Part shown: positions 8,413-52,264 of the stretch, piece by piece | Numbering within the stretch: the stretch's first letter is position 1 | How the letters are laid out: each line of letters starts with the position of its first letter | DNA from: an uncultured Planctomycetia bacterium | GTDB lineage: Bacteria; Omnitrophota; Gorgyraeia; JABMRN01; RBG-13-46-9 | DNA length: 64,000 nt | Assembly (NCBI GenBank): GCA_964440235.1 | Contig: CAYTQI010000003.1 | Coordinates: forward strand, 1,599 to 65,598 | Direction of reading: 5' to 3' | Notes under the pieces: generated by a model | The model's input: the letters and a program-made list of their open reading frames with translations, nothing else | Database searches by the model: none | What the model was told of the DNA's origin: nothing | Made by a program: the position numbers and the translations under genes

Positions 8413-8472
8413 ATTTCATTCCCTCCGTTTGAAGGCAAGTATATCACAGAAAATAAATTTGTCAAGGGGAAA

Positions 8473-8520: not shown

Positions 8521-8543
8521 TTATGAATGGAATTTTTAGCGGG

Positions 8544-8735: not shown

Positions 8736-8799
8736 TTTCTACCTCAACTTTCAAGCAATAAAAGTATACCACAATCCGCAAAAATGACAAGTTTTTTTA

Positions 8800-29413: not shown

Positions 29414-29659
29414 TTAACCCTCTTTCACCATTAAAAGCAACGCTATCGCGATAAGAAGATAAGCGATTGTCCTGGCAATGATTAAAATATTTACAAGCGC
29501 CGAGTCAAGGCCGATAATTGTCAGGATGTGGGAAAAGCCGAAGATCCCAAAAGATATCCCGATAAATAGAGTGGGCAATCCTTTGTTTTTGCCATAAGCC
29601 AGGTAACTCAAGAGAACTATCACGATACACAAAACTGTATTTATCACGGTCAAAACCAT
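29414..29659 (-). CDS. small membrane protein (81 aa, three TM helices)
   Basis: Entirely hydrophobic ORF at the head of the minus-strand transcription unit. Confidence 0.45.
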   Translation of the reverse strand: MVLTVINTVLCIVIVLLSYLAYGKNKGLPTLFIGISFGIFGFSHILTIIGLDSALVNILIIARTIAYLLIAIALLLMVKEG

Positions 29660-29844
29660 TTTTCGCCTCCCATTTTCTTCCTATACGGCTTAAGTTTCCG
29701 GCAAACTTGCGAATTCTGACGCGCCGGACAAAAAGCGGCCGGCAAGAACATCCTTAACGGCAGGATACGCGTTTCTCCCGATTAATACCACTTATTTCGT
29801 AAAATTATACCTCTAAAACCGGCTGCCCTCAAGGTTTATTTGCC

Positions 29845-33804: not shown

Positions 33805-35058
33805 CTATTTGTTTTGGGGTTCGTAATTTCGGGATTCGAAATTGTGTGTCCAGTAGTTCACGCCCCGCTTGAGCACTGAAAGGCCCATTTCCTGCCCGGT
33901 TTTAAATATCAGGATAAACCAGAAAAGGACAAGCGCCGGCGCCGCCAATAGCAGTCGTTTCAGCAGTGAGCGCATGCTCCTTATGGCGAGTATGCAGGGA
34001 AAAATTCCGAAAAGTATGACCTTGCCGGTTCCTCCCACAAAATCGAGAGCACTAAGAAAAATATTCGGATATAAAAGCGATATAATGAGCGGCGGCGCGA
34101 AAGACAGCGCGAAACTAAGGAATCCGCTCGAGGGCATTCTGGTATGATTCGTGATTATGTCATCAATAAAATCAATTTGCGTCCGCCCGATCGATATATA
34201 CGAGGTTATGATGGCCGTAAGGGTAAACATCAGGGCGGCCTGCATGAAAAGCGGGCTTTTTATCGCGTTCGCGAGGGGTACGGTCGCCGGAAGGTTTTTT
34301 TGAAGGGCGTTTAAAATACCTCCGGCCCCCTCAAGATTCAAAACCCCTATTCCCACCTGTATCCATATCACATTCATGATAAAACCTATTACGGCACCGA
34401 AGGTAAAAGCCAGCAATATGTCCCTGATGTTCCAGTTAAGTTTTTTACATATGGTGGGTATTATATTGTGAAAATTTGCCGCCATTACTATGATTGGGAG
34501 AGCGGCCGGAAGCATTTTCCAATCCCTGTAAGCGAAACGCGAGGCATCCACGTATTTCTCTCCCATGATTACAAGAACGCCGAACGAAATCCATAAAAAC
34601 ACCACAAATAAAGTACTGCACCATAGAAGCAGTTTAGGCCTGAAAAATGTTATACCCGTAAAAATCGTGAAAAATATAAGCATGATCGCCGATTTCGGGA
34701 CCGGAACATTGAGGAGCCGCGCTATAACCGTGGTTGAACCGGTAAGATATACGGTAAGAAGCCCGTAAAGTATGATAAGGTTCGCCAGTGTAGCTATCCA
34801 TTTTCCGGCGGTACCGAAATACTCCTGATATAAACTGGGATAGTGAAAATTTTCCCGGCGATTTTTTATTGATTCCTTCGCGAGCACGACCGCCGTGAAA
34901 AAAAGCGCCGCGCTAAGCGCGAGCAGCCCTGCCATCGATGGCCAGAAACCGGCCATGCCGGTTTTTATCGGCAACCCCAGGATCCCGGCGCCTATCATGT
35001 TACCGGTAATAAAACACCCGACCATAAAAATAAGTGAAAACGGTATTTTTTTATTCAT
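33805..35058 (-). CDS. aromatic amino-acid (Trp/Tyr) permease, HAAAP family (paralog 1)
   Basis: N-terminal NMIGAGILGLP signature of Mtr/TnaB/TyrP transporters; 11 TM helices. Confidence 0.75.
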   Translation of the reverse strand: MNKKIPFSLIFMVGCFITGNMIGAGILGLPIKTGMAGFWPSMAGLLALSAALFFTAVVLAKESIKNRRENFHYPSLYQEYFGTAGKWIATLANLIILYGLLTVYLTGSTTVIARLLNVPVPKSAIMLIFFTIFTGITFFRPKLLLWCSTLFVVFLWISFGVLVIMGEKYVDASRFAYRDWKMLPAALPIIVMAANFHNIIPTICKKLNWNIRDILLAFTFGAVIGFIMNVIWIQVGIGVLNLEGAGGILNALQKNLPATVPLANAIKSPLFMQAALMFTLTAIITSYISIGRTQIDFIDDIITNHTRMPSSGFLSFALSFAPPLIISLLYPNIFLSALDFVGGTGKVILFGIFPCILAIRSMRSLLKRLLLAAPALVLFWFILIFKTGQEMGLSVLKRGVNYWTHNFESRNYEPQNK

Positions 35059-36242
35059 TTCAGATGTCTCATTTGTTTTTCCGCGGTGGTTTTACGAAAT
35101 ATGTAATACGCGCAAAGAAGAACGCTGAAAAAAGTAAAAATCGCGGAAGAATAAAACACGGAATCAATTCCGAGCCGGTCCATTATAATACCCGCGGCTA
35201 TCGGCGCGATAACGATCCCCGCGCTCATTACCGCCCAGAACACGCCCATCCACATCCCCATACCGACCTGTTTGCCTATTTCCAGGGAAAGGCTCGTTAC
35301 TGCCGGCACGCATATAGCGATTCCGAGTCCCATAAAACACCCCGCGGTAAAAAGAGCCCAGTAATTCGGGCAAAGCGGCAAGACAAATATGGCCAGCATC
35401 GAAACAGAGATCCCCATGCTTGACTGAAGCAGTTTACCAAGCCGTCCAAGGCGCTGCGCGAGTTCGCCGAAAGGAATCTGCAGGAGGCCCGCTATAAATA
35501 TAGACACGGATATAATAAGGCCCGTGTGGGCGATGTCCACAAAATCCCTTATAGCCATTGACGGAAGAAATGACATGAATACAGCCGAAAGAGCGGTTGA
35601 TATAAGCGTCATTATCAAAACCGCTTTTACGTAATTGTACTTAAGCAATATGTTAAACGGCGCGATGCCGGGCGCCTTGCGCCTTGTTGTGCCTTTCGCC
35701 TCCGGAAGTAAAAACATCACAAAAAGAAGCGTTATGCCTCCGAGAACAGCCATCGTGTAAAAAACAGCGTCGAAACCGCGCCGTTCGGCAAGTTCTCCGC
35801 CGATCAGCGGGCCCGCCGCTATTCCCAGGTATAATACCGTATTCAGCCCGCCTACCGTTAAGCCTTCTGTGCCCTGTCTCGCAAGTTCACCGACGTACGC
35901 CATCACAATAGGTAATATCATGCCGGCCGACAGCCCGTGAATAAGGCGGACCGCTGTCAACAGGTAAACGTTGTCGGCTTCCGTGTAAAGGAGAGAGGCA
36001 AGGGAATAAAGTACAAGCCCCGCCACGACAAATATTTTACGCCCTATCCTGTCGGAGATTTTTCCTATGAATGGCGTCACAATGCCTCTCGATATGGCAA
36101 AACCGGCGAATATCATACCTATCCAGAAGCCGTTAGCGCCGTGGCTTTGGGCAAGTTCCGGCAGAAAAGGAGATATTACCGCAAGTCCCAGCGACGCGGA
36201 AAAAGCGGCCATCATCAAAAGGCAAAAAGTACGTACATTCAT
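35055..36242 (-). CDS. MFS transporter
   Basis: 12 TM helices, MFS motif A-like GKISDRIGRK between TM2 and TM3. Confidence 0.8.
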   Translation of the reverse strand: MNVRTFCLLMMAAFSASLGLAVISPFLPELAQSHGANGFWIGMIFAGFAISRGIVTPFIGKISDRIGRKIFVVAGLVLYSLASLLYTEADNVYLLTAVRLIHGLSAGMILPIVMAYVGELARQGTEGLTVGGLNTVLYLGIAAGPLIGGELAERRGFDAVFYTMAVLGGITLLFVMFLLPEAKGTTRRKAPGIAPFNILLKYNYVKAVLIMTLISTALSAVFMSFLPSMAIRDFVDIAHTGLIISVSIFIAGLLQIPFGELAQRLGRLGKLLQSSMGISVSMLAIFVLPLCPNYWALFTAGCFMGLGIAICVPAVTSLSLEIGKQVGMGMWMGVFWAVMSAGIVIAPIAAGIIMDRLGIDSVFYSSAIFTFFSVLLCAYYIFRKTTAEKQMRHLK

Positions 36243-36302
36243 ATAATCAGAATATATCCTTAAAAATACAAGACATTAAACAGGGACACGGGTTAAAAAT
36301 TT

Positions 36303-37574
36303 TCACTTTTCTACGGAAAACGTTTTGTGTTTCCAGTGTTCTTTTGACGCGTCTAATTTTAGCATCCCGGATTCCTGGGCTACTTCGCACAATAAGAATG
36401 TTGAAAACGCCGCTATCATTACAATAGCGGCCACTTTAAACAACTTTCCCCTTTCACGCGCCATTTTGAGCATGATAAAGCTCGGCAATAACCCAAAAAC
36501 TATCAGTATCCCAAGGCCGCCGGCCAGGTCTATGGCCTTTAAAAAAAGTCCGGGATAGATCATCGCCACCAGAAAAGGCGGGCCGAATGAAAGCAGCACT
36601 ATGGCGTATTTGCTGGGTTTTTTGAAATAAAGCGATAAAATCCCCTTCATAAACCCTCTGAGGGCTATACCCGTAGGGATATACGAAGTGGCCATGGCGG
36701 TAAGCGCGAAAAACATTCCGGTAACCGTAATCACCCTGGAATGCAAAGCCAAAGCGAGCGGAATAGTGGCGGGATAATCATTTTGCAGGGCACTGAGTAT
36801 ATTTGTTTTTCCGGGGCCGCTGACCGGAAGAGCCCCTATCACCACTGTCATCCACAATATATTCATAACCAGCGCCATAAAGCTTCCCAATAATACCGCC
36901 TTCAAAGCGGCCCATGGGTTTCCGTCGAGATTGCTGCATATAAAAGGAACGACATTGTGAAAAGAAAACGCGACGATTATTATGGGTATTACGGAAGGTA
37001 TCAAGCCCCACTTTCTGTAGCTGAAACGGCTGGCATCAACATGCTGTCCGGTTTTGAACAGAAGAATCGAAAAAGACACAAGCAGGACTGCCATGATTAT
37101 CGCGTTCGCGTTTTTGGCTTTGTCAGCGCCAAGAAGGACAAGGCCTGTAAAAATTACAAAAAAGGCGGCCATCCATACATGGCTCCCTGCGTTAAGAGGC
37201 ACCAGGTTCACAAGTATAGCGGCTGAACCCGTTAAATACGCCACAAGAATACCGTAATAATTCACCAGATAACCAAAGACACTGATCCACTTGCCCTTGG
37301 GCCCCAATTCGCTTTGAAAAAGTGTCGGATAATCGCGGGATCTTTCTTTCGGGTGGGTAAATTTGTAAATAAATACGATTGCCGTACACAGCATAAGAAC
37401 CCAGACTGAAAACATGCTTAAGAGCGAAGGCAGCATACCCGCGAGCCCGGTTTTTACGGGTAGGCCCAGAATGCCCGCGCCTATGGTCATGCCCATGACA
37501 AGCAGGCTGTTAATAAATATTTTTACGAAAGTTATTTTTTTTTCCAACTTGTAAACCATAAAGGGGACGGGCAT
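36303..37574 (-). CDS. aromatic amino-acid (Trp/Tyr) permease, HAAAP family (paralog 2)
   Basis: MTIGAGILGLP signature, collinear with paralog 1. The start is either ATG 37574 or ATG 37559. Confidence 0.75.
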   Translation of the reverse strand: MPVPFMVYKLEKKITFVKIFINSLLVMGMTIGAGILGLPVKTGLAGMLPSLLSMFSVWVLMLCTAIVFIYKFTHPKERSRDYPTLFQSELGPKGKWISVFGYLVNYYGILVAYLTGSAAILVNLVPLNAGSHVWMAAFFVIFTGLVLLGADKAKNANAIIMAVLLVSFSILLFKTGQHVDASRFSYRKWGLIPSVIPIIIVAFSFHNVVPFICSNLDGNPWAALKAVLLGSFMALVMNILWMTVVIGALPVSGPGKTNILSALQNDYPATIPLALALHSRVITVTGMFFALTAMATSYIPTGIALRGFMKGILSLYFKKPSKYAIVLLSFGPPFLVAMIYPGLFLKAIDLAGGLGILIVFGLLPSFIMLKMARERGKLFKVAAIVMIAAFSTFLLCEVAQESGMLKLDASKEHWKHKTFSVEK

Positions 37575-37630: not shown

Positions 37631-38377
37631 TTACCTTTTACGGGCGCGGGCTTTAGGGCCCGGCTGATTAACTTTTTTAAATTTTGGCCTTGTTCCTCGG
37701 ACTTTTTTATGCCCGGGCGGATTTTTTAGTTTTTTCGGCGGAAGCGGCTTTTGCCCGGCTTCCTTGTCTTTTAAATGTTTACGTCCGTGGGGACTTTTTT
37801 TCGGGGGTAATTTGCGGGGAGGCCGTTTTCGAGGAGGCCTTCTGTGTTTCGGAGGAAGTTGGCCCTCCGCGTCTTCTACGGATTCCGCGGAGTCTTTATG
37901 CCCCATATAACCACCCTCACCCTCGCCACGATGAACCTTTTTCGGTTTTCGTTCACCGCGCGGGCGCTTTCGCGGCGGCCGTTTTCGAGGGGGTAATTTG
38001 CGCGGCGGCCGTTTTCGAGGAGGCCTTCTGTGTTTCGGAGGAAGTTGGCCCTCCGCGTCTTCTACGGATTCCGCGGAGTCTTTATGCCCCATATAACCAC
38101 CCTCACCCTCGCCACGATGAACCTTTTTCGGTTTTCGTTCACCGCGCGGGCGCTTTCGCGGCGGCCGTTTTCGAGGGGGTAATTTGCGGGGCGATTTACC
38201 CGGGCCCCCTTTAGGGCCGGGCGGATTACCTTTTTTCATTGCCGGTGACTTACCCGGGCCCCCTTTAGGGCCGGGCGGATTACCTTTTCGTTGCGCGTAA
38301 GATAATGACGTTGATAGTGTAAAAATCAACATCGTAAAAAGGACTATTGTATTGAACACTACAATTTTTTTCCGCAT
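37631..38377 (-). CDS. secreted, extremely basic Pro/Lys/Arg-rich tandem-repeat protein
   Basis: ATG at 38377 with a perfect SD AAAGGAGGAACAGGT; signal peptide MRKKIVVFNTIVLFTMLIFTLSTSLSYAQ. Two 18-aa repeats (KKGNPPGPKGGPGKSP), then two identical 62-aa repeats (RKLPPRKRPPRKRPRGERKPKKVHRGEGEGGYMGHKDSAESVEDAEGQLPPKHRRPPRKRPP) encoded by a roughly 186-bp tandem duplication that is 100% identical. Confidence 0.6.
   Translation of the reverse strand: MRKKIVVFNTIVLFTMLIFTLSTSLSYAQRKGNPPGPKGGPGKSPAMKKGNPPGPKGGPGKSPRKLPPRKRPPRKRPRGERKPKKVHRGEGEGGYMGHKDSAESVEDAEGQLPPKHRRPPRKRPPRKLPPRKRPPRKRPRGERKPKKVHRGEGEGGYMGHKDSAESVEDAEGQLPPKHRRPPRKRPPRKLPPKKSPHGRKHLKDKEAGQKPLPPKKLKNPPGHKKVRGTRPKFKKVNQPGPKARARKR
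37790..38300. repeat. nested tandem repeats inside the basic secreted protein gene: two copies of a roughly 186-bp unit (100% identical over about 180 bp), two copies of a 54-bp unit, and short CGGCCGTTTTCGAGG(G/A)GG sub-repeats
   Basis: Unit copies start near 37822 and 38008; the 54-bp unit (ttacccgggccccctttagggccgggcggattacctttt) starts near 38196 and 38250. Confidence 0.8.
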
Positions 38378-38460
38378 TTTACCTGTTCCTCCTTTCGCTA
38401 ATTCGCGTCCAAGGAAGTATACCACATAAAATGGTGAGGGTCAAATGCCCGCTCAAAAAA

Positions 38461-39751: not shown

Positions 39752-39953
39752 CCCGCCCCTTAAAAACTTTCTTTTTCCCCGTTCAGGGCCTGCTCTTCGC
39801 TTTCTTTTTCCCGCATGTTTTTTCTATCTAACTTCCGCTGTAGTTTTTTTTCTTTTTTTTTCTTTTTCGCGAATTCTTTTTGGCGCTTTCGGAACGAATA
39901 ATTATCTCTTGCCAATATGCCCTCCTTCTTTACCCAGCCATACCTTTTGTTTG

Positions 39954-40040: not shown

Positions 40041-41063
40041 TTAAGTTGTCAGCAATTTTTCGGCGGAGGCAAGAACTTCAGCGGGTGTAATCGCCTCAAG
40101 GCACTTAAAACCGATCCTGCAATTATGGGCAAGGCAAATCCCGCAACCGGCATCTTTGTGAAAAACAACGCTTTTCCTGCCGGTGGGCCCCCATCGCTTC
40201 GGAGACAACCCGGGATCCTTTCTTCCAAAAATAGAGATTACCGGCGTACCTACGGCACAGGCGATATGGACAGGCCCGGAATCGTTGGATATAAACAATT
40301 TGCACCTCGAAAAAAGAGCGGCAATTTCACCGACACCGGTTTTTCCCGCAAGATTCACCGGTTCGTATTTCATTGATTTCGCAACAGCGTCGGCGAATTT
40401 CTTATTCGCCCCGTCCGATACGATTAATATTCTTGCTTTGTGCTTCGCGGAAAGGGCATCGCACAAAACGGCGAAGTTTTCCGGTTTCCACCGTTTGGAC
40501 GGGCAGCTGGCGCCGGGATTTACGGCAACAAGCGGGACGCCAGTGCCGACATGGTATTCATTGAGTAATTTTCTGATTTTTTTCATGTCATTTTCGCGCA
40601 CGGGAACAAAAAGTTCCCTTTCTTTCGCCGTTATTCCGATACTGCGAAGAAGGTCAAGAGTATATTCGATTTCGTGTTTTTTCCCTTCCTGCTTAAGATG
40701 CGGTACTTTTTTCGTAAGAAGAAACGGGATCTTTCTGTCATATCCTACTCTTTTCGGGATGCCCGCGAGATACGCTATCAAATGCGCGCGGTTTGTCGGG
40801 TGAAGCATGACCGCCAGATCGAATTTCTTTTTCCTCAAAAACAAGGCAAACATAATCGTGCTTAATAAGCTTTTTTGTTTGCCGTATTTATCATAAATTA
40901 TCACCTCGTCCAGATAAGGATTGCCCTCAACTATGTCTTTCGCGTACGGGCGTACCATAAAAGCGATATAAGCCCCGGGATATTTATCGCGGGCCGCTTT
41001 TATGGCCGGCGTGGATAAAACAACATCGCCGAGCCTGTCTGTTCGTGTCATTAGTATACGCAT
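40041..41063 (-). CDS. glycosyltransferase family 9 (ADP-heptose:LPS heptosyltransferase family)
   Basis: N-terminal RLGDVVLSTPA, GT9 central and C-terminal blocks (NPGASCPSKRW, SNDSGPVHIA). Confidence 0.8.
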   Translation of the reverse strand: MRILMTRTDRLGDVVLSTPAIKAARDKYPGAYIAFMVRPYAKDIVEGNPYLDEVIIYDKYGKQKSLLSTIMFALFLRKKKFDLAVMLHPTNRAHLIAYLAGIPKRVGYDRKIPFLLTKKVPHLKQEGKKHEIEYTLDLLRSIGITAKERELFVPVRENDMKKIRKLLNEYHVGTGVPLVAVNPGASCPSKRWKPENFAVLCDALSAKHKARILIVSDGANKKFADAVAKSMKYEPVNLAGKTGVGEIAALFSRCKLFISNDSGPVHIACAVGTPVISIFGRKDPGLSPKRWGPTGRKSVVFHKDAGCGICLAHNCRIGFKCLEAITPAEVLASAEKLLTT

Positions 41064-41099
41064 TGCAACCTGTCCGGCCGCGCCGGCCGTTATTGTTTG

Positions 41100-42101
41100 T
41101 TAGCGGCTGTCGAGAAGCTTTTTCACCGCCTCGAACGCCTCTTCCACCGAAATTGATTTAAGACACTCGTACTTATTCCCCTCATTTACGCACTGGGGAG
41201 CCTCGCAGGGAGAACACTTTATGTTTTTCCTTAATACCCTACTCGCGGCTTTCGTGAACGGGCCGTATTTGTTCTCGTCCGTAGGGCCAAAAAAAGCGAG
41301 TATCCGCGCGTCGACCGCGCTTCCGAGGTGAAGCGGCGCGCTGTCGTTTGTTATTAGAAGCGCGCTTTTTTCGATAAGGCAGGCGAGCTGGCTGATATTC
41401 GTTTTCTCGATAAGGTTAAGGGGTTCTGTCTTCATATAAAAAAGCATTCTTTCAACAACAACCCTGTCATATTCATCGCCTATCAAAACAACACCGCAGG
41501 CGAGTTCTTTCTTTATCCTGTCGCAAAGTTTCGCGAAATTTTTCAGGGGCCATCTTTTTACGTGGCTCTTCGCGCCGGGGCTTACCACGACGAACGGCTT
41601 TCCGGTCAGGCCATTCAAAAGATTTTCCGCGCGTTTTCTGTCGTTATCCCCCGTCGGGACATAGGCGCGGGCCCGGGGCGCGTCAATACCTATTTCCTTA
41701 AGTCTTAAAAGATAGGCGTCTTTCTTGTGCATCCTTCCCCTTCGCCGGTATCGAAACGGATTGGTGGCGAACCGTGCCCCGAGTATAAACGGAAAAATGG
41801 TGTTGCGTAAATCCACTACGAGATCGTAATTTTTTCTTCTAAGTTTGAGGAAAAGAGTGAGTTTCGAGAAGAAAGGGCTTCTCTTATCGTATACTATCAC
41901 TTCGCGCACTTTTTTGTGGGCCTCGAAAATTTCCTTTCCGCCCGGGCCTACCATTATATCAAGCTCCGCTGAGGGAAATTCCGCGATAAGGGCTTCCGTG
42001 ACAGGCGTAGTTAGTATAACATCGCCTGTGTTGGTTAAGGTTATTACCAGCATGCGTTTTACGCGAGCGGGGGCGGGCGCCTCTATACGGTTTTTCTTCA
42101 T
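41100..42101 (-). CDS. glycosyltransferase family 9 (heptosyltransferase family), second tandem paralog
   Basis: TGDVILTTPV, SPGAKSHVKRW, TNDSAPLHLG. Confidence 0.8.
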   Translation of the reverse strand: MKKNRIEAPAPARVKRMLVITLTNTGDVILTTPVTEALIAEFPSAELDIMVGPGGKEIFEAHKKVREVIVYDKRSPFFSKLTLFLKLRRKNYDLVVDLRNTIFPFILGARFATNPFRYRRRGRMHKKDAYLLRLKEIGIDAPRARAYVPTGDNDRKRAENLLNGLTGKPFVVVSPGAKSHVKRWPLKNFAKLCDRIKKELACGVVLIGDEYDRVVVERMLFYMKTEPLNLIEKTNISQLACLIEKSALLITNDSAPLHLGSAVDARILAFFGPTDENKYGPFTKAASRVLRKNIKCSPCEAPQCVNEGNKYECLKSISVEEAFEAVKKLLDSR

Positions 42102-43183
42102 TAAAACACCTGTCGGGTGCGATACATTTCACCGAACACTTCTAAAACGTCATCAACCTTTATCGCGTCCATGCACCTGTAATTATCGCATGTAAGGTCG
42201 TAGCACGGGATTTCGCAGCCCACATTCTTTTGTATCACCCTGTAATCACCGCCCCCGTAAGGGCCTGTAAAGGATGGGGATGTCGGTCCGAAAAGCGCTA
42301 TTACCTTTGACTTCACCGCCGCGGCCATGTGCATGGGTCCGGTATCCCCGGATATAACGAAATTCGCCCTTTCCATTAACGCGCCGAGTTTATCCAAATC
42401 GGTCCTGCCGGCAAAGATTATAAGAGGATTTTTCATTTTCTCTTTTATGCGTCTTGAACGTTCCAGATCCTTTTTTGCTCCGGCGGCAACCATTTTAACC
42501 CCGTATTTTGTTACAAGCTCATCGGCTAAAAGCGCGAAGTTTGTCTCGCTCCAGCGTTTCGGGGGCCAGTTCGCCCCGGTGTTAATAACGACAACAGTGT
42601 CTTCTTCCTTAACGCCTTCTCCGGCGAGCTCCTCCCTTATGTACTTACGCGCTTTATCCGTTACGAAAAATTCATAATTTTTATCGGAAGTATCGCATCC
42701 GAGAGCGTCCGCGATTTTTAAAAAATATTCCACTTTGTGAAGCGGCTCGGAAAAGGCGTCGACCGGGCGCGTAAGAATAAATTTTCGTTTTTTTGTCGCG
42801 TAACCGGCGCGTTCGCCGATTCCCGCTAAATATGTCATGAGCGCTTTTGTAAAGGACCTGTGTAAAAGTACGGCGAGATCAAAATTTTTTTTTCTGATCA
42901 ACGATACAAGGCGCGCCTTTCCGAGAAACCCCCTGTGCCTGTTTTCTTCATCATAAATTATTATCTCGTCTATCCGGGGGTTGCCGGTCAGCATTTTTTT
43001 CGCGCGGGGCGCGACCATGCAGGCGATATGAGCGGTTTTGAATTTTTTGCGAAGCGCCTTTATAAATGGGGTTGAAAACAAAACGTCCCCGAGCCAGTTT
43101 ACCTCAACTATGAGTATGCGCTTATACAACCTATCACTGCCGTAGGAGAAGGCCTCGGCCTTTACCTGTCGCGCCGCTTTCAT
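42101..43183 (-). CDS. glycosyltransferase family 9 (heptosyltransferase family), third tandem paralog
   Basis: LGDVLFSTPF, NTGANWPPKRW, SGDTGPMHMA. Confidence 0.8.
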   Translation of the reverse strand: MKAARQVKAEAFSYGSDRLYKRILIVEVNWLGDVLFSTPFIKALRKKFKTAHIACMVAPRAKKMLTGNPRIDEIIIYDEENRHRGFLGKARLVSLIRKKNFDLAVLLHRSFTKALMTYLAGIGERAGYATKKRKFILTRPVDAFSEPLHKVEYFLKIADALGCDTSDKNYEFFVTDKARKYIREELAGEGVKEEDTVVVINTGANWPPKRWSETNFALLADELVTKYGVKMVAAGAKKDLERSRRIKEKMKNPLIIFAGRTDLDKLGALMERANFVISGDTGPMHMAAAVKSKVIALFGPTSPSFTGPYGGGDYRVIQKNVGCEIPCYDLTCDNYRCMDAIKVDDVLEVFGEMYRTRQVF

Positions 43184-43186
43184 CCG

Positions 43187-43984
43187 TCAATCCTCATCCC
43201 TGTGCTCTTTGATAAACGTATAATATCCGCTTGTTTCTATCCAGAATACCAGCATGTTATTCGATGTCATGGAAATTCTGATTCTTTTAAGGGCGTAAGA
43301 ATCCGCGGCTGAATACTTTTTTCCGGGATTTGTCGCCACAGCACCTGTATACCCGGTTTCTTTGGCGATTTTTTTTACCCTTTCATCAAAAGCGCCCACC
43401 GGGTATGATAAAATTTTTACCGGTTTGCCCGTGGCCCGCTCTATCGCGTTTTTTGAACCGGCCAGCTCTTCACGAATACCCTTTTCGTTCAATGACGGCA
43501 GCCATGACTGGGTAACGGTATGGCTGCCGATAGATATATTATTTTTCCGCATTGCCCGTATATCATCCCAATTCATATAGCCTTCCTTTCCGACGGCGCC
43601 TGACGGCACGAACATTATCGCCGGAAAATTATATTTTTTTAAAACGGGATAAGCGTACAAAAAATTGTTTTTAAGCCCGTCGTCAAAAGTTATGGCCACG
43701 GTTTTATGCGGGATTTTTTCGCCTTTTTTTATTCTTTCGACAAAATCGGCAAGGCCTATAACTTTGTAATTGTTGTCATGCAAAAACTTCATTTGCCTTT
43801 CGAACGCGGCGGGAAGCACGTTAAGTTTTGACCGATAACCCCGCGGAGTTTCGCGGGCGGGGCAAACGGAATGATACATGAGAATAGCCGGAACATATAC
43901 GGAGTCGAGAAAAAATTTTCCCGCCGCGAATAATATTGAAACTGCTATTATGGATATAACGGTGATTTTTTTATATGATTTCAT
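43187..43984 (-). CDS. polysaccharide deacetylase (NodB homology domain) with N-terminal TM anchor
   Basis: NodB motifs VAITFDDG and HTVTQ; N-terminal hydrophobic helix. Confidence 0.75.
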   Translation of the reverse strand: MKSYKKITVISIIAVSILFAAGKFFLDSVYVPAILMYHSVCPARETPRGYRSKLNVLPAAFERQMKFLHDNNYKVIGLADFVERIKKGEKIPHKTVAITFDDGLKNNFLYAYPVLKKYNFPAIMFVPSGAVGKEGYMNWDDIRAMRKNNISIGSHTVTQSWLPSLNEKGIREELAGSKNAIERATGKPVKILSYPVGAFDERVKKIAKETGYTGAVATNPGKKYSAADSYALKRIRISMTSNNMLVFWIETSGYYTFIKEHRDED

Positions 43985-44093
43985 TTTTTTATTCCATTTG
44001 TTAAAGTAAATTGTTTTAAAACATCAGGCGCCTTTGCGTGCCACAAACCTTCCGGCCGATACCCTTACAACCGGGTATCCCCGCCCGGGCGGA

Positions 44094-45200
44094 TCAAACA
44101 GAGCGCGCGGTCTTATAAATTTTAATAACTTTGTCGGCCATGCCGTCCAGCGAAAATTTCTCTTTTACCAGGGCTCTTCCGTTTTTTGCCAGCGAAACAC
44201 CGAGCCTGGTGTCGCCGAGCACTCTCATTATGGCCGCTTTCAGCGCGCGCTTATCCTTGGGGGGAACAAGAATACCCGTTACGCCGTTTTCAACGACAGA
44301 AGAAACCCCGCCTACATCAGAAGCGACACACGGCTTGCCGGCGGCCAGGGCTTCAAGAAGCGAAAGCCCAAGCCCTTCTTCCAGTGAATAAAACACAAAA
44401 ACATCAATAATTGACAAAAATCGCTGCGTTCTGGTGGTATTCATGGCGAAAAAAACATTTGCCTCGATACCGAGTTTTTCCGCGAGCTGCATAAGGTAAG
44501 CTTTCGACGGGCCCTCACCCACGAGAAGAAGTTTTGACTCGGGCATTTCCCTCAATATATCCTTCATGGCCAATAAAAGATATTTAAGCCCCTTGACCGG
44601 GGAAAGCCTCGATACCGAACCGATAACGGGTGAGCGCTCAAAACCCAGCTTTATCTTAAGGGATTTTTTCTCATCTTCCTCCGTACCGGCGGGGGAAAAA
44701 GCGCCTGTGTCCACCCCGTTATATATCAGGAAAACATTTTTTTCGTCAATACCCAAATCTTTTGTCAAATGCCTCTTCACAGCATCGCTTATGGCGATAA
44801 CATGGTTTCCCCAGGCCCTGAATAATCTTCTCGAAATCCTTTTTCCCCTGAAAAAACCATGGCATGTACTGATATAAGACACCGGGCTCAATTTTGAAAG
44901 CAGGTACGCGAGCACTTGCGTAACCCTCGTCTGAGCGTGTATCACATCGATTTTTTCTTGCTTTATGAATCTGTTTAATTTTAGAAGCGTGAAAAAAAGT
45001 TTTGGGTGAAATTCAAATTTTGTTTTTACGGAAACCGGTAAATGCGTTATGCCGTTTTTTGCGAGCGACCCTTCAAGCTCTCCGCCGGCTGAGGCGACAT
45101 ACACTCGTATACCCTTTTTTTTCAGGGCTTCCGCGAGGGTCACCGTATAAACCGCGACTCCTCCTATATTGAGATGAGTGGTGAAAAGCAATACCCGCAT
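44094..45200 (-). CDS. glycosyltransferase family 4 (GT-B, retaining)
   Basis: 368 aa, Glyco_trans_4-like N-domain plus Glycos_transf_1 C-domain (EGLGLSLLEALAAGKPCVAS). Confidence 0.8.
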   Translation of the reverse strand: MRVLLFTTHLNIGGVAVYTVTLAEALKKKGIRVYVASAGGELEGSLAKNGITHLPVSVKTKFEFHPKLFFTLLKLNRFIKQEKIDVIHAQTRVTQVLAYLLSKLSPVSYISTCHGFFRGKRISRRLFRAWGNHVIAISDAVKRHLTKDLGIDEKNVFLIYNGVDTGAFSPAGTEEDEKKSLKIKLGFERSPVIGSVSRLSPVKGLKYLLLAMKDILREMPESKLLLVGEGPSKAYLMQLAEKLGIEANVFFAMNTTRTQRFLSIIDVFVFYSLEEGLGLSLLEALAAGKPCVASDVGGVSSVVENGVTGILVPPKDKRALKAAIMRVLGDTRLGVSLAKNGRALVKEKFSLDGMADKVIKIYKTARSV

Positions 45201-45279
45201 CTTTTGTGCCTTTTAACGCTTACGCGCGCCGTATCCTTCCTGATATAATATATTTCCCGTTTGTAAACATGATTTACGG

Positions 45280-47427
45280 TTATTTTTCCTTTAATCCCAT
45301 CAAAACCGCTATCTCCTCATACACCTCTTCGGGTTTAATTGCCTTCATACAACTGTTGCGCTTGGCGCAACGGCTGTGATAGCACGGGCCGCACTTGAAT
45401 TTTTTTCTTAAAACTACGTGTTTTTTTTCGAACGGCGGCAGGTGCCTTTTCGGGTCGGTCGGCCCGAAAAGCGCGACAAAAGGAGTACCGACGCCCGCGG
45501 CCACGTGCAGCGGAGCGCTATCAACACACAGGACAAGATCGCACCTTTTTACCAGGGCCGCAAAATAAAGTATGTTCGTCCTGCCAATGGCGTCTATAGG
45601 TTTACACCTGGCGCGTGCCAAAAATTTATTCGCGAGAGGGCGTTCTTTTTCGAGGCCTGTCAGCAGGACTCGAATACCGAAGTTCAATGCGAGTTTGTTG
45701 CAAACCTCGGCAAAATATTCCGCCGGCCACAGTTTTGTATTCCAGCCGGCGCTCGCGCCGAGGCTAATGGCTATAATTTTTTGCCCGTCTTTCACCCAAT
45801 GGGACTTCAGGAAATTATCCGCCCATTCCTGATCTTCTTTTGAAAGGCAAATTTCCGGGCGCTTATCCATTCTGTATATACCCAGAAGATTCAGCACCTT
45901 TAGCTGGTGTTCCACCGGGTCAACGGGAAAACCTGAATCCCTGATTTTCCTGTTTAACAAAAAACTCATTTTCCCGTTGTCGTAACCGTACCTCTTCGGC
46001 ACGCACGCCATAAACGCGAGCATGTGGCTTTTTTTGTTGTTCTGAAAATCGATTGATATGTCAAAATTTTCGGCGTGAAGTTTTTTCAGGACACGCAGGA
46101 AACCCGCCGGGGAAGCGTCCCTGCCCTTGAAATCGCATATGATTATGTCGTCTATAAAATTGAGATTCGCGAGAACCCCCCTGTTTTCCACGCCAAGCAG
46201 AACTTTTATCTTCGCTTTCGGAAACTTCTTTCTTATGGCTCGAAGCGACGGAACAGCCAGGATAACGTCCCCCAGCGCCCCTATCTTTATGACAAGTATA
46301 TTCATACTCGAGGACGCTTCTTCATAAAGATCCAGTGTAGATTCCATTATGCTTTTTGTGCCGTATTCCTGTTTTAAAAGTTTTTCTGATTCGTTTTTGA
46401 TGTCGCTTTTTAAATTTTCATTTCTGTACAAACCGATTATCGCTTTCGCCGCCTCGCCCGGTTCTTCGCCTGAAATCAGGAAAGCTTTCTTGTTATCCCG
46501 CGCGTAATCTTTTATCCATTCAGCGCGCGTCGTAAACACCGGCACCCCTCCGGCCCAGGCACGCAAAAAAAGTTTCGGGGATGTGTACGCATCCGCGTTA
46601 AAATGCATGAACAAATCCAGGCCGGATATGGATTCCGATACTTTCTCGCCGGGCAAAAGAGTGACAACGCCTTCGAGCGAATACCGCCTTACGAGAAGCC
46701 TGAATTTTTCCAATTCCCTTTTTTGGCTTGTCAGCGCGCTATTAATCAAAAAAACCCTCATATTATATATTGTCCTGGAAATAATCGAAATTGTTTTTAC
46801 AAAATTTTCCGCCGCTTCCTGCGATGTAAGCGGCAAATTCACCCCAATATCAAAATACTTACCTCGTTCCACTGCGTCAGTGGAAAGAGGGGTACTCTTT
46901 CCACTGACGCAGTGGAACGAGGGGTTTTTCATGGAATTGAACTCCTGCGTGCCGGCAAACGGTGGTATAACGCGTATTTTGCCTCTGTGAATAAGGCCTT
47001 TTTCCATAAAGTACCTGGCAAAGCTTTCACAAGAACAGATTACGCGTTTTGCCCAAAATTGAGCCCTTGATCCCAACCCCCTTCCGCAAAAACCGTATAC
47101 CGTAGAAACAAATGTGCGTTCGGTAATGCGGCTTGCAAAAAATGATATGAGAGCCGAAGCGGGGCATCTCGCGTGTACAATGCGTATATCTTCTTTTCGA
47201 ATAATTTGTGACAGCTTAAAAATTGCCGCAGGAATCAGGAAAATATTCGCCGGAACCCCGAGAGCGTAATGACGCGCCCCGACTTCATCGATTTTTTTCA
47301 CGAGTTCACTTTTTGGGGAAGCCACGACAATCTTATGCCCGTTGAGAGCGAGAAAACGCGTGGAAACAATGACGTCGTCGGCGGCATCGCTCGAATCTAA
47401 CTTCGATATTACCTGTAGTATATTCAT
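45280..47427 (-). CDS. two-domain protein: N-terminal GT4-like glycosyltransferase fused to a C-terminal GT9 heptosyltransferase-like domain
   Basis: 715 aa continuous ORF. aa 1-370 are GT-B/GT4-like; aa 375-715 are GT9 (GALGDVILAVPS, SLGASAGWNTKLW, VDSAPLHVAAG). It contains a 61-bp perfect palindrome inserted in-frame (encoding SFHCVSGKSTPLSTDAVERG). Confidence 0.7.
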   Translation of the reverse strand: MNILQVISKLDSSDAADDVIVSTRFLALNGHKIVVASPKSELVKKIDEVGARHYALGVPANIFLIPAAIFKLSQIIRKEDIRIVHARCPASALISFFASRITERTFVSTVYGFCGRGLGSRAQFWAKRVICSCESFARYFMEKGLIHRGKIRVIPPFAGTQEFNSMKNPSFHCVSGKSTPLSTDAVERGKYFDIGVNLPLTSQEAAENFVKTISIISRTIYNMRVFLINSALTSQKRELEKFRLLVRRYSLEGVVTLLPGEKVSESISGLDLFMHFNADAYTSPKLFLRAWAGGVPVFTTRAEWIKDYARDNKKAFLISGEEPGEAAKAIIGLYRNENLKSDIKNESEKLLKQEYGTKSIMESTLDLYEEASSSMNILVIKIGALGDVILAVPSLRAIRKKFPKAKIKVLLGVENRGVLANLNFIDDIIICDFKGRDASPAGFLRVLKKLHAENFDISIDFQNNKKSHMLAFMACVPKRYGYDNGKMSFLLNRKIRDSGFPVDPVEHQLKVLNLLGIYRMDKRPEICLSKEDQEWADNFLKSHWVKDGQKIIAISLGASAGWNTKLWPAEYFAEVCNKLALNFGIRVLLTGLEKERPLANKFLARARCKPIDAIGRTNILYFAALVKRCDLVLCVDSAPLHVAAGVGTPFVALFGPTDPKRHLPPFEKKHVVLRKKFKCGPCYHSRCAKRNSCMKAIKPEEVYEEIAVLMGLKEK
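46862..46922. repeat. 61-bp perfect palindromic element, copy 1: 28-nt arms CCTCGTTCCACTGCGTCAGTGGAAAGAG around a 5-nt centre, inside the GT4-GT9 fusion gene
   Basis: Seen directly: cctcgttccactgcgtcagtggaaagag-gggta-ctctttccactgacgcagtggaacgagg. Shares the 19-nt core TTCCACTGCGTCAGTGGAA and its reverse complement with copy 2. The host ORF reads through it in-frame. Confidence 0.85.
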
Positions 47428-47492
47428 TATGCCTCTGCGGGCTTACATCTGTAGTTTTCTTCGCGCATTCTTCATGCTCAAGCGCTGGCTAA

Positions 47493-49493
47493 TTAAACGC
47501 CCAGCCGCCACATGTGCATGTATACATCGTGCATGTGTCTTTGTGGCGGGCGTTTCCCGAGTTTTTCTAAATTTTCGCATATCGCTTTCGAAATTTCATC
47601 GGGTTCGACAATCGTTATGTATCCTTTTTTTTCTAAACCATTCAGCATTCTTTCAAATTTTCCAGCCTTTGCCGGGATTTTGAAAAATTTCTTTTTGAAA
47701 TTCTGTATTCGGGACGGATTTTTTTTTCTGGAATTCAAACGAAAAACAATAACTGATTTTCCGCTCTGTACGGCTTCGGAAACCATGGAAGCGCTCTCGC
47801 CGGAAACAACCACCGCGTCACAGAGGCCTAAAATTCCGTCCACCGCGCGAGGAATGTTTTTTTCATTCGCTATAACTAAAAACCCGCAACGCTTTTCCGA
47901 TAATAACCGCTCCTTTACCGCTTTTTCCGCTTGAGCCGGAGTTCTCCGCGAAGTTGTAAATAAAATATCCGCGTCCGCTATTTCGGAAGCATTGATAACA
48001 CCGTTCAGAACTTTTTCCGTTATTTCCGGTGTTAAAGTAAAATCTGAATTATCTCCACCTAAGAGAACTCCGATTCTTTGCGGGTTTTTTAGACGCGCTA
48101 AATCGGAAATTTTCCCCGCGGCTGAATTCATTCGCTCCTCGTCTATCAGGTTTGGCACGATTTCCGTTCTTATCACATGGTCCCGGGCTCGCCCGATTAT
48201 TCGGTCGTGGCGCGGCAGGACAACCATGTCAAACTTGTCGAATCCCGGTATTGAGGGATTCATTATCGCGGCGCTTTTGGCATTATTTTCCACGGAAAAA
48301 AATCTGTTAACAGCCGCCGTGCCCGAACCGCAACTGATTACTATATCAGCGTATTTTCCCATCAATTCATTGTAACAACTTTCCGTAAGGCAGAACTTGA
48401 GGCAACGCATGCAACCCTGGCAGCGTTTTCCGGAAAAAATAGAACAAAATTTAAGCAACGCTTTGGTTGTTTCATTTTTGAACCTGATATCCACCACTTC
48501 CACCCGCGTGTCTTCTTCCCTGTAATCATCTTTTTTCCTGTACCGCTTCAGCTCCCGGCAAACAGCCAGGGACTGGTTAAGATGGCCGGCTTTCCCGTCA
48601 TTCAATACTACAACCTTTTTAAGCGACGACGCTTTCCATCTCTTGTGGAGCCATAACCACTGATCGGGATACATTGTAACGTATTTTTCCAGGAGTTTAT
48701 TGTATTTTTCCAGATACGGCTTTATGTCCTCGCCCTTTTTAATTCTGATAGGTTCGCCTACCATTAACCTGTGATAAGGCCCTTTTACGCGCGCCATAAA
48801 AGCAGGCAATATAAGGGCGCCTGTTTTTGCGGCTATTCTCACTGTCCCGGGCGCCGTGGCGGCCGGCCTTCCGAAAAACTCAATTTGCTCGCCCGTTTTA
48901 CCGGCGTTTTGATCGCCCAGCATTCCTATTATTTTGCCCTCATGCAACGCCTTCACGATATACTTTATCGTGATCCCTTTTGTAACAACGGTAAGGCCCT
49001 TTGACCGGCGAAGCCTGTTCAAAAGATTATCCAGCCTTTTCATGTTTTGTTCCCGTGCCAGGACAATCAGCGGCAAGCCTATCAGGGCGCTTACCACGCC
49101 GGAAAGTTCCCAGTTTCCAAAATGCGCCGTCAAAAATATCACTCCATCTGGATGTCCCTCGATTTTATAGAAATTTTCGCCGCCCACTATTTCAACATGC
49201 TTATCTATATACTTTTTGTCTACTTTTGTGAGCGAAATAATTTCAAAAAAAACCTGGGTGAGCCCCTGGTATACTTTCCTGGTAAGTTTTTTAAGCTCAG
49301 CCGGGGATTTATTGCCGGAAAAAGCGGCTCTCAGGTTCGCATAGGCAATAATTCTTCTCGGCCTGTTCAAAAAATACACGATTATCGAACAACGCCTCGC
49401 CAGCCATAACGTAAATTTCATGGGCAGCAGATAAAAAATCAGGCCAAGCGCCGTAACCAGGCACGCGCATATGTAATCAAGCAAGGATCGCAT
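47493..49493 (-). CDS. lpxL: lipid A biosynthesis lauroyl/myristoyl acyltransferase (LpxL/HtrB family) fused to an ELM1/DUF1022 domain
   Basis: N-terminal TM plus LPLAT HFGNWE motif; the C-terminal roughly 370 aa match the mitochondrial-fission ELM1-like family (VVVLNDGKAGHLNQSLAV...). Confidence 0.7.
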   Translation of the reverse strand: MRSLLDYICACLVTALGLIFYLLPMKFTLWLARRCSIIVYFLNRPRRIIAYANLRAAFSGNKSPAELKKLTRKVYQGLTQVFFEIISLTKVDKKYIDKHVEIVGGENFYKIEGHPDGVIFLTAHFGNWELSGVVSALIGLPLIVLAREQNMKRLDNLLNRLRRSKGLTVVTKGITIKYIVKALHEGKIIGMLGDQNAGKTGEQIEFFGRPAATAPGTVRIAAKTGALILPAFMARVKGPYHRLMVGEPIRIKKGEDIKPYLEKYNKLLEKYVTMYPDQWLWLHKRWKASSLKKVVVLNDGKAGHLNQSLAVCRELKRYRKKDDYREEDTRVEVVDIRFKNETTKALLKFCSIFSGKRCQGCMRCLKFCLTESCYNELMGKYADIVISCGSGTAAVNRFFSVENNAKSAAIMNPSIPGFDKFDMVVLPRHDRIIGRARDHVIRTEIVPNLIDEERMNSAAGKISDLARLKNPQRIGVLLGGDNSDFTLTPEITEKVLNGVINASEIADADILFTTSRRTPAQAEKAVKERLLSEKRCGFLVIANEKNIPRAVDGILGLCDAVVVSGESASMVSEAVQSGKSVIVFRLNSRKKNPSRIQNFKKKFFKIPAKAGKFERMLNGLEKKGYITIVEPDEISKAICENLEKLGKRPPQRHMHDVYMHMWRLGV

Positions 49494-50508
49494 CTATTTC
49501 TTCTTTTCCCCGGATTAATTCAAGTTTTACTGAAAGCGCGAATATTTGCGGCGTAGATTTTTCCGGCTTCAGTTTTTTAAGTTTCACGGCATCCTTTTCC
49601 GTGGTGATAATAGTATCTATGTTTTTCTTTTTACATTCCCTGAAAATGCGGGCAAGTTCCGAAGCCCTGTATAAATGATGGTCCGGAAAAACAAATTCAA
49701 GCGCGACCTGCGCGCCGATTTTTTCTAATGTGTATTTGAAATATGCTCCGTCGCAAATACCGGAAAGCGCAGAAACTATTTTACCTTTTATAAACGTCAT
49801 CTCAAAAGTATTTTCTTTATATATTTCGAAAAGTTGTACGGGCCTGTGTTCGGCTTCCAGTATAGGTTTCCCCGGAATAATGTTTTTTAAGTTCCTCTTT
49901 ATGGCCTCGATGCTTTCTTTCCCCTTATCGGCCTTGGTAAGAACGATAACATCCGTTCTATTGAGATTTTTTATTGGTTCCCGTAAAATTCCGCGCGGAA
50001 AAAGATGCCTGTTGCCGAAAGGATTCGTTGAATCGAGAAGCGCTATGTCAACATCCCTCTTCAGGCGGCGATGCTGAAAGCCATCGTCAAGAATCAAGAC
50101 GTCCATACCTGATTTTTCGGCCGCTCCGGCGGACTTTATCCTGTCTTTTCCGACAAAAACCCTTACACCGCGCTTTCCAAGCTTTTCTTCCAGCATACCC
50201 CATTCGTCTTCGCCGTAACCGCGAATAAGAATGGCTGTTTTTTTGCCTTTTACAATTAACTTTTCGGCGAGCATCATCACGAACGGCGTCTTTCCCGTAC
50301 CACCGAGAGTTATATTGCCAACGCTTATGGTGGTAATGCCGGACTTATAGCTTTTTAGTAGATTAACTTTATAAAAAAAATTATGGGCAGCGGCAAAAAA
50401 ACCGTACACATAGGACGCTATCAACAAAAAAGGTTTGACGGCCCGTGATAGAAAAACATTTCGTTTGCCGTACATTATGTCCCGTATATAAGATTTCAAA
50501 ATTTCCAT
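49477..50508 (-). CDS. lpxK: tetraacyldisaccharide 4'-kinase
   Basis: P-loop GNITLGGTGKTP and LpxK central region ILIRGYG...LDDGFQH. Confidence 0.85.
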   Translation of the reverse strand: MEILKSYIRDIMYGKRNVFLSRAVKPFLLIASYVYGFFAAAHNFFYKVNLLKSYKSGITTISVGNITLGGTGKTPFVMMLAEKLIVKGKKTAILIRGYGEDEWGMLEEKLGKRGVRVFVGKDRIKSAGAAEKSGMDVLILDDGFQHRRLKRDVDIALLDSTNPFGNRHLFPRGILREPIKNLNRTDVIVLTKADKGKESIEAIKRNLKNIIPGKPILEAEHRPVQLFEIYKENTFEMTFIKGKIVSALSGICDGAYFKYTLEKIGAQVALEFVFPDHHLYRASELARIFRECKKKNIDTIITTEKDAVKLKKLKPEKSTPQIFALSVKLELIRGKEEIDAILA

Positions 50509-50528
50509 CCGCCCATAATAAATTTGTA

Positions 50529-51800: not shown

Positions 51801-52264
51801 TTCTGTTTTGTTTCTCCGTTAAAAAGCGCCTTGCATATATCCATTCGCGTAATAATTCCCGCCAATTTATTATCATCGCCGGTCACGACAGGTAGCCTTC
51901 GTATATTATACTTATTCATTAAAACGGGGGCTTTCATTAAAGACGCGTTTTCCTTTATACTGATAACATTCGCGACCATGAGGTCTTCGGCAATAAAAAG
52001 CTCGAGTGACGGCATGAATTCAAGTTTTTCCTCAAGGGCGCCAAGGTCATCAATGAATAAAAAATCGCCTATCATTTCAAAATAATCGGGAATCAGAACA
52101 TCTATGAGTTCTGTTTTTGTAACCATTCCAAGGAGCCTGCCTTCGCCATCGGTAACGGGTACGCCGCCTATGTTTTTTTCGCAAAAAATTCTATATATCT
52201 GCCGAAGTCCTGTCGAAAGTCCGACTGTAGCAACATTTCTTGTCATTACATCTTTAACTTTCAT
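51797..52264 (-). CDS. CBS-pair domain protein
   Basis: Two CBS motifs (VKDVMTRNVATV...; EDLMVANVISIKENAS...RRLPVV). Confidence 0.7.
   Translation of the reverse strand: MKVKDVMTRNVATVGLSTGLRQIYRIFCEKNIGGVPVTDGEGRLLGMVTKTELIDVLIPDYFEMIGDFLFIDDLGALEEKLEFMPSLELFIAEDLMVANVISIKENASLMKAPVLMNKYNIRRLPVVTGDDNKLAGIITRMDICKALFNGETKQK

Follow-up and report, generated by a model that had tools for sequence, protein, structure and literature searches.

A predicted exported, polycationic repeat protein of an Omnitrophota bacterium: a derivative of an uncurated NPPGPxGGPG family, with a 186-bp unit in one or two copies

The Legionella collagen-like protein Lcl is a copy-number-variable tandem-repeat protein of the cell envelope. 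TonB, in turn, has a periplasmic Pro-rich spacer, in which Glu-Pro/Lys-Pro repeats favour an extended polyproline-II conformation. A third type of Pro-rich chain is represented by the proline-rich antimicrobial peptides (PrAMPs), which are defined by a proline content of at least 25%, a net charge of at least +1 and an antimicrobial activity with an intracellular target, either the 70S ribosome or DnaK, the PRP motif being indicative but not essential (PMC7736402, Box 1). Here we describe a gene whose product resembles each of these in part. It lies in a 64,000-nucleotide stretch of metagenome-assembled DNA (contig CAYTQI010000003.1 of assembly GCA_964440235.1, positions 1,599 to 65,598), which we call the window, and it encodes a protein of 248 residues, hereafter the repeat protein, containing two identical 62-residue units. 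We propose that this is a real gene, that its product would be an exported, disordered and polycationic derivative of a widespread protein family, that the number of its units varies, and that it would act as a multivalent binder of polyanions in the envelope or outside the cell. Taken as a whole, we regard this statement as evenly balanced between right and wrong; the part concerning identity and architecture is much more secure than the part concerning the ligand.

The repeat protein can be assigned to a large, widespread and uncurated family of small exported proteins, because it carries a signal peptide, two NPPGPKGGPG units near its N-terminus (residues 33-42 and 51-60) and a decayed pair of such units at its C-terminus. 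A preliminary description of this DNA, made from its letters and open reading frames (ORFs), had found no recognisable family; this has to be revised, given the decayed C-terminal repeats and the match of residues 4-65 to a profile of 23 relatives (hhalign, 98.9% probability, E = 1.3e-17). A phmmer search against 5.8 billion proteins returned 27 further proteins with E-values from 1e-16 to 6e-4, those of 1e-16 to 1e-9 speaking for family membership, and an exhaustive phmmer search over 1.84 billion representatives returned 60 matches. Of these, 58 are relatives whose best stretch covers only residues ~1-94, which comprise the signal peptide, the NPPGPKGGPG units and the few positions that follow them. 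The remaining two are P0002, the near-identical one-copy allele described below, and P0044, an unrelated low-complexity repeat protein that matches the core by chance. No homologue of the core was found in this exhaustive search, which is the better evidence here, since a search with the core only (a query like residues 63-156) failed to return even its own protein. Neither the repeat protein nor the NPPGP repeat has a match in Pfam, NCBIfam, PADLOC, the PDB sequences or Rfam, the only match in PHROGs is not significant (phrog_36616, E = 0.063), and in the literature no work on the NPPGPxGGPG motif was found, string searches giving irrelevant matches only.

The pattern NP[PLR]GPxGGPG occurs at no fewer than 599 sites (that is, at least 599) in GTDB contigs, taken as one genome per species, and 20 loci were confirmed in metagenome-assembled genomes (MAGs) of Omnitrophota, Alpha-, Gamma- and Deltaproteobacteria, Acidobacteriota and Planctomycetia. 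Examples are the proteins P0003-P0029, including the hypothetical proteins KKE64_07875 from a Ca. Omnitrophica MAG (P0006) and QF877_17975 from a Gammaproteobacteria MAG (P0015), and the loci L003-L022, one of which (L005) has two adjacent paralogues at 7529-7975 and 8001-8828. All follow the same plan: a signal peptide or lipobox, NPPGPxGGPG repeats, a variable core, NPPGPxGGPG repeats again, and a basic C-terminal end. The repeat itself reads D(R/K)DNNPPGPxGGPGTNWENPPGPxGGPGASPDR, or takes the shorter form KGNPPGPKGGPGAGP, with at least one copy on the N-terminal side. The family appears to include lipoproteins, because some of its members (L017, L020 and P0015) carry a lipobox (LGAC/LTAC) instead of a signal peptidase I (SPase I) site.

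The cores between these end-repeats are of several kinds. Some relatives (P0003, P0006 and P0011) have EF-hand-like cores, with WEKxADxNxDGxVDxxE loops and weak-to-moderate matches to Pfam EF-hand models; in some it is the core that matches EF-hand-type models of Pfam and NCBIfam (XopAW), and for one EF-hand-like member a confident helix-loop-helix is predicted by AlphaFold2 (AF2). P0039, L022 and P0056 have cores with LTPEQ-type motifs (LTPEQ/LSPEQ), which we take to recall the Spy/CpxP-type periplasmic stress proteins. Others consist of Cys/Tyr/Trp-rich modules (P0015, P0026, L015, L017 and L020), and L003 has charged RED repeats in this place. Cys pairs also occur among the members.

Set against this plan, the repeat protein keeps the full family architecture with two changes: its C-terminal glycines have given way to Lys and Arg, and its core is replaced by a block of Pro, Arg and Lys. 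It shares with the family its small size, its stand-alone gene, the signal peptide (whose end, ..SLSYAQ, is common to P0003, P0004, P0005 and P0007 in the alignment), the two N-terminal units, the degenerate C-terminal copies and a basic terminus, here ..RKR where other members have ..GGGKR or ..RR. The core, by contrast, has no DxNxDGxVDxxE loops, LTPEQ motifs or Cys/Tyr/Trp domains, and is instead a tandemly duplicated block polyampholyte. The family is mildly basic overall and the repeat protein is its cationic extreme, with a net charge per residue of 0.25, the highest of 99 family sequences (mean 0.057 +/- 0.057, next 0.21).

The two motifs of the C-terminal pair read NPPGHKKVRG (residues 219-228) and NQPGPKARAR (237-246), and 62 of 99 nucleotides are identical, in register, between this pair and the N-terminal one, about 9 standard deviations above the maximum reached after codon shuffling (39.5 +/- 2.5). 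P0023 and P0008 have ..NPPGPKGGPGAGPKFKKGNPPG.. ends to which the tail KNPPGHKKVRGTRPKFKKVNQPGPKARARKR can be aligned as well; taken alone, the short C-terminal peptide of 38 residues gave no significant BLASTP match to P0023. For the N-terminal pair, the preliminary description had given two 18-residue units; the period of 18 residues and 54 nucleotides holds, but the unit quoted there represents only 16 residues of it.

The identical duplicated units of 186 bp and 62 residues that had been noted in the core are borne out: identity is exact over 182 bp (37821-38002 and 38007-38188), the encoded units are the same, and Tandem Repeats Finder (TRF) reports a period of 186 with 2.1 copies, 98% matches and a score of 768. 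No other long tandem repeat occurs in the window, where the next best TRF score is 96. The remaining tandem repeats there are just two, an imperfect 32-bp repeat in two copies at 46863-46925, within a gene encoding a fusion of glycosyltransferases of families GT4 and GT9, and (TCTTTC)5 at 6674-6705, within a ribonucleotide reductase gene.

The mature protein of 220 residues consists of 20.5% Pro, 19.1% Lys, 14.5% Arg and 13.2% Gly, so that Lys and Arg together make up 34%, and it has a net charge of +56, an isoelectric point of ~11.8 and neither Cys nor Trp. With a charged-residue fraction of 0.42 and the net charge per residue given above, the chain should therefore be an extended polyelectrolyte. 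Each 62-residue unit is a block polyampholyte in which two basic arms, the first of the PPRK(R/L) type, enclose an acidic patch (HRGEGEGGYMGHKDSAESVEDAEGQ, net -5), and the protein contains eight PPRK motifs. In the two-copy allele, the neighbouring arms join into a stretch of 37 residues (LPPKHRRPPRKRPPRKLPPRKRPPRKRPRGERKPKKV) with 32% Pro and a net charge of +18. When AF2 was run on the single sequence, the only helix predicted was that of the signal peptide (residues 3-30), with a mean predicted local distance difference test (pLDDT) of 59.5, and no secondary structure was predicted beyond it. The mature protein is thus most likely, according to these predictions, an intrinsically disordered polycation. 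A typical family member modelled with an alignment of 23 sequences also had its NPPGP repeats below a pLDDT of 50. A polyproline-II/polyglycine-II bundle clasping both ends of the protein, with Gly at every third residue (PPG-PKG-GPG), was considered and found unsupported, since in that shallow 23-sequence alignment the repeats stay below 50 and only the EF-hand-like hairpin is confident. As for better-known folds, the repeat protein has no EF-hand character: P0001, the identical public sequence, has no Pfam match at E <= 1, the acidic patch DSAESVEDAEGQ has no ligand pattern, and no helix is predicted there. Nor is it a collagen, as each NPPGPKGGPG has only three consecutive Gly-X-Y triplets and there is no Pfam Collagen match.

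How could such a protein work? A cleavable Sec signal peptide would direct its export and, once cut by SPase I, the protein would function in the periplasm, at the outer membrane or extracellularly. There, as its composition alone would suggest, it may bind polyanions by multivalent electrostatics, the candidate ligands being lipopolysaccharide (LPS) core and lipid A phosphates, 3-deoxy-D-manno-octulosonic acid (Kdo), anionic polysaccharide and extracellular DNA; the binding of LPS, DNA or polyphosphate put forward in the preliminary description would likewise follow from composition. Within a near-clonal population, slipped-strand or unequal recombination would take the 186-bp unit from one copy to two and back, and the repeat number would set the length or reach of the protein and its valency, the two-copy allele producing the long +18 arm.

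The same composition has been weighed for an offensive role, in which an Omnitrophota cell that is predatory or depends on a host would use the repeat protein as an effector. Its Pro/Arg/Lys arms would act on prey either like PrAMPs or as polycationic disruptors of membranes or LPS, perhaps once released by proteolysis. The Pro content and the charge of the 37-residue arm would suit such a function, a varying number of repeats would agree with an arms race, and the Omnitrophota have been described as ultra-small bacteria that take up a predatory way of life (bioRxiv 10.1101/2023.11.21.568195). However, the Pro content of the mature protein falls below the 25% threshold of the PrAMP definition (PMC7736402, Box 1), there is no PRP motif, and the chain, with its 220 residues, is long and interrupted by acidic patches. 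Besides, its relatives, spread over many free-living phyla, have the look of housekeeping proteins of the envelope, and no linkage to secretion-system or lytic genes is seen in the window. We consider this effector role unlikely. A bolder version, to which we assign a still smaller likelihood, would have the NPPGPxGGPG end-repeats as a conserved display or anchoring module in a class of envelope proteins not described before, and the repeat protein as a member turned into a prey- or host-directed polycationic effector of a predatory Omnitrophota cell, LPS- or membrane-disrupting or PrAMP-like, with a valency tuned by the rapid gain and loss of the 62-residue unit.

Returning to the envelope polyanion binder and its variable unit number, the window was compared over 20 kb with two other assemblies, L001 (JGI 3300029267) and L002 (JGI 3300017989); these comparisons concern assemblies, not reads. 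L001 has one unit; it lacks exactly 186 bp of the window and shows no other difference, its flanks being 100% identical over the 20 kb. L002 has two units and differs from the window by ~10 single-nucleotide polymorphisms (SNPs) over 20 kb, with flanks 99.96% identical. At the protein level, a public collection holds the identical 248-residue sequence from an NCBI contig of 87,915 bp (P0001), a 248-residue variant with Val to Ala in the second unit (P0030), and the 186-residue P0002, which is the protein minus exactly one 62-residue unit. In L002, SNPs at gene positions 443 and 471 are confined to copy 2 and divide the repeat into exact runs of only 67, 27 and 86 bp; therefore, an assembler resolves both copies unambiguously. 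The window and L002 have the same middle junction in this two-copy allele, CGG CCG CCG CGC (CGGCCGCCGCGC, diagnostic AAACGGCCGCCGCGCAAATTACCCCCTCG), and the outer junctions read CGG CCT CCC CGC and AAA TCG CCC CGC (CGGCCTCCCCGC, AAATCGCCCCGC). The two-copy state is real, because a loop artefact passing through a single unit cannot create the bases of the middle junction. In the one-copy allele, the unit is bordered by a perfect 17-nt direct repeat (CCCCGCAAATTACCCCC), on which slipped-strand or unequal recombination would have an obvious place to act. The duplication preserves the reading frame (186 = 62 x 3), and the ORF is intact in the three assemblies.

The in-frame unit number thus differs, one versus two, between near-identical genomes, which is the behaviour of a variable-number tandem repeat (VNTR) as far as assemblies can tell. 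A copy-number-variable locus is therefore supported, with the caveat that L001 may be a collapsed assembly; the actively variable locus of the preliminary description stands with this same caveat. In the opposite direction, the duplication could be an artefact, the true state being a single 186-bp unit or the apparent one-versus-two difference reflecting only the way in which different assemblers treat a loop. The single unit of L001, within flanks identical to the window, would fit this, as would an exact repeat of 182 bp, longer than the usual k-mers and than a 150-nt read. Against it, L002 comes from a different sample and its two copies are told apart by the two SNPs in copy 2, and the middle junction has its own bases, the same in the window and in L002. 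These same points counter the expansion of a single unit during assembly, named beforehand as the case that would overturn the duplication, and we deem an artefact improbable; its reverse, two copies collapsed into one in L001, is possible. The L002 comparison also revealed a local hotspot elsewhere in the window: six of the SNPs (10 positions are listed, one of them at the locus end) fall within 150 bp (window ~29594-29743, L002 18635-18784), covering the beginning of an 81-residue ORF without Pfam matches and the region immediately upstream of it, the DNA elsewhere being 99.96% identical.

Export is the next part of the proposal to be weighed. The N-terminus looks like a typical Sec/SPase I signal, with MRKK, a hydrophobic stretch of 17 residues and the site SYA/Q, the protein beginning with MRKKIVVFNTIVLFTMLIFTLSTSLSYA and the mature chain with QRKG. 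Alternatively, this hydrophobic N-terminus could be an uncleaved inner-membrane anchor, with the polycationic body in the cytoplasm, where it would bind nucleic acids, polyphosphate or anionic lipids. The charges speak for this: the first 15 mature residues carry +4, versus +3 ahead of the hydrophobic core, and the passenger carries +56. Under the positive-inside rule, such a charge disfavours Sec export. Against an anchor, SYA/Q and its flanks are conserved with relatives whose cores are typical of the periplasm (Cys pairs, EF-hand-like loops) or which have lipobox variants, and the Omnitrophota relative L003 likewise has RK at +2/+3. A retained anchor is, in our view, about as improbable as the artefact discussed above.

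The repeat gene is most likely a real and independently promoted gene of an Omnitrophota bacterium, because it is the sole open frame, it has a Shine-Dalgarno sequence and a promoter-like site, and it is intact in three assemblies. The other two coding-strand frames at 37631-38377 are rich in stops and lack family motifs, so a frameshift origin of the core was ruled out. The start at ATG 38377 agrees with the start point of the homologues, whereas a longer alternative from GTG at 38425 would run over the promoter-like site. This site has 10 of 12 consensus matches and an extended -10 TG by consensus comparison, and it sits in the 83-bp gap after the LOG-family gene. The secreted-looking, extremely cationic Pro/Lys/Arg repeat protein of the preliminary description is thus upheld as a real ORF by frame, composition and repeat analysis, as is its signal peptide, with support from the homologues; the Shine-Dalgarno sequence called perfect there is present, as AAGGAGG, with a spacer corrected to 10 nt. 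A dependence on co-transcription with the upstream LOG and ArfB-like genes, a point marked there for checking, is unlikely, given the promoter-like site in the gap and the lack of conserved neighbours in the family.

A real ORF could still be a decaying or functionless member of the family, a neutral low-complexity frame drifting after the loss of its core. The degenerate C-terminal repeats would be expected of such a gene, as would a core without homologues and the failure to find an orthologue in a sister species. On the other hand, the frame is intact in all three assemblies, the duplication is in frame, the Shine-Dalgarno sequence and promoter-like site are strong, and the N-terminal 65 residues are well conserved, which leaves decay very unlikely. 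Least probable is a rigid periplasm-spanning polyproline-II rod like the Pro-rich region of TonB, with a length set by repeat number, since the alternating Pro and basic residues, the eight PPRK motifs and the missing secondary structure that would suit it are countered by the absence of matches at E <= 1 to the Pfam models for either terminus of TonB, of a retained anchor and of folded end domains, and by acidic Gly-rich patches that break rods.

The window can be identified as part of an Omnitrophota chromosome: the topoisomerase I encoded there is 64-87% identical to its relatives among the matches listed, and the best named ones (up to 85%) all belong to Candidatus Omnitrophota/Omnitrophica. 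All the genes neighbouring the repeat gene lie on the same strand. Upstream is a cluster for LPS core and lipid A, which includes two fusions, a GT4-GT9 protein of 715 residues and a lipid-A-acyltransferase/Elm1-like protein of 666 residues; between this cluster and the repeat gene lie a 51-residue ORF, an ArfB-like gene with an RF-1 domain and the LOG-family gene. Downstream, no convincing terminator was found 3' of the repeat gene, therefore read-through into the permease gene (37574) is possible, and the repeat gene may head a downstream transporter operon. No conserved gene neighbourhood was found among the family loci examined, where the neighbours are phosphoglycerate mutase, rubrerythrin, RNase HII, a GT87 glycosyltransferase and others, and LOG relatives in metagenomes (45-56% identical, among the matches listed) occur without a nearby NPPGP gene or any other neighbour from the window. 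Since the family contexts are unrelated and the LOG relatives lack such a neighbour, genomic context carries little functional information. The coordinates of all these features are collected in Table 1.

Table 1. Features of the repeat gene and its surroundings, in window coordinates
Feature	Position	Strand	Remarks
CDS (coding sequence), predicted exported polycationic repeat protein	37631..38377	minus	248 aa + stop; sole open frame; identical protein P0001 in public collection
Predicted signal peptide, residues 1-28	38294..38377	minus	MRKK, hydrophobic core, SYA/Q; read from sequence and homologue conservation
Two 18-aa NPPGPKGGPGKSP units, family hallmark	38186..38293	minus	54-nt period; 96% DNA identity over 45 nt
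62-aa unit copy 1, residues 63-124	38006..38191	minus	acidic patch between a basic PPRK arm and a second basic arm
62-aa unit copy 2, residues 125-186	37820..38005	minus	missing in one-copy allele L001; 2 SNPs in L002
Middle-junction copy of 17-nt direct repeat	37989..38005	minus	CCGCGCAAATTACCCCC, versus CCCCGCAAATTACCCCC at 38175-38191 and 37803-37819; diagnostic of two-copy allele
Decayed C-terminal NPPGP pair (KNPPGHKKVRGTRPKFKKVNQPGPKARARKR)	37632..37730	minus	frame and 54-nt spacing as in N-terminal pair; 71% and 62% copies; MAFFT alignment
Shine-Dalgarno AAGGAGG	38388..38394	minus	10-nt spacer to ATG
Promoter-like site	38416..38444	minus	TTGACC (38444-38439), 17-nt spacer, TATACT (38421-38416), TG preceding -10; consensus match
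51-aa Lys/Glu-rich ORF (MARDNYSFRKRQKEFAKKKKKEKKLQRKLDRKNMREKESEEQALNGEKESF)	39760-39915	minus	directly upstream of ArfB-like gene; called in L001/L002 at 8463-8618; no Pfam match
LPS-core/lipid A cluster	40041-53549	minus	three consecutive GT9 heptosyltransferases, polysaccharide deacetylase, GT4, Kdo transferase
Trp/Tyr-permease paralogues (423 and 417 aa) around MFS (major facilitator superfamily) transporter	33805-37574	minus	immediately downstream of repeat gene, no clear terminator between

Several points weigh against the proposal of an exported polyanion binder with a variable unit number. Basic residues at positions +2 and +3 of the mature chain and a passenger of +56 are unfavourable for Sec translocation against the membrane potential, and on this charge-based argument the export of the repeat protein is not certain. 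Any particular ligand would be a deduction from composition alone. The adjacency to the LPS-core cluster is broken by the unrelated ArfB-like and LOG genes and does not recur with other members of the family. The single copy could be the product of a collapse during assembly, the 182-bp exact repeat being longer than common k-mer sizes. Finally, no orthologue of the repeat gene was recovered from a sister species when synteny was followed through the upstream LOG gene in metagenomes.

What makes this locus of interest is, in the first place, that it exposes a widespread family of small exported proteins, present in several Gram-negative phyla and with no Pfam or NCBIfam model, in which conserved Pro/Gly end-repeats bracket interchangeable cores; the recognition of the NPPGPxGGPG family is the most useful by-product of this analysis. 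The repeat protein adds to this a complete replacement of the core, together with a repeat-number polymorphism within one population. If polyanion binding proves true, it would be an envelope protein with a slippage-tuned valency, in a phylum without a cultured model; if not, it would be a hypothetical disordered protein of modest interest.

Compared with the systems introduced at the beginning, the repeat protein resembles PrAMPs such as Bac7, PR-39, apidaecin and oncocin in its cationic Pro/Arg-rich stretches, which reach 32% Pro in the arms, and in having no predicted secondary structure. Its net charge of +56 lies well within the PrAMP definition (PMC7736402, Box 1), but it differs in its overall 20.5% Pro, in the absence of PRP, in its 220 residues with acidic patches and in its bacterial origin. 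With the TonB spacer it has in common a repeat of Pro and charged residues, but it carries an SPase I site instead of an uncleaved anchor, no TonB C-terminal domain and no TonB Pfam match at E <= 1. Lcl offers another parallel, being likewise exported, rich in Pro and Gly and built on an in-frame tandem repeat with a unit number that changes from one close relative's genome to the next; the repeat protein departs from it in having only one or two long 186-bp units, with neither a continuous Gly-X-Y repeat nor a Pfam Collagen match. By analogy, then, the repeat protein would at most work like exported low-complexity polycations and like the copy-variable repeat proteins of the envelope.

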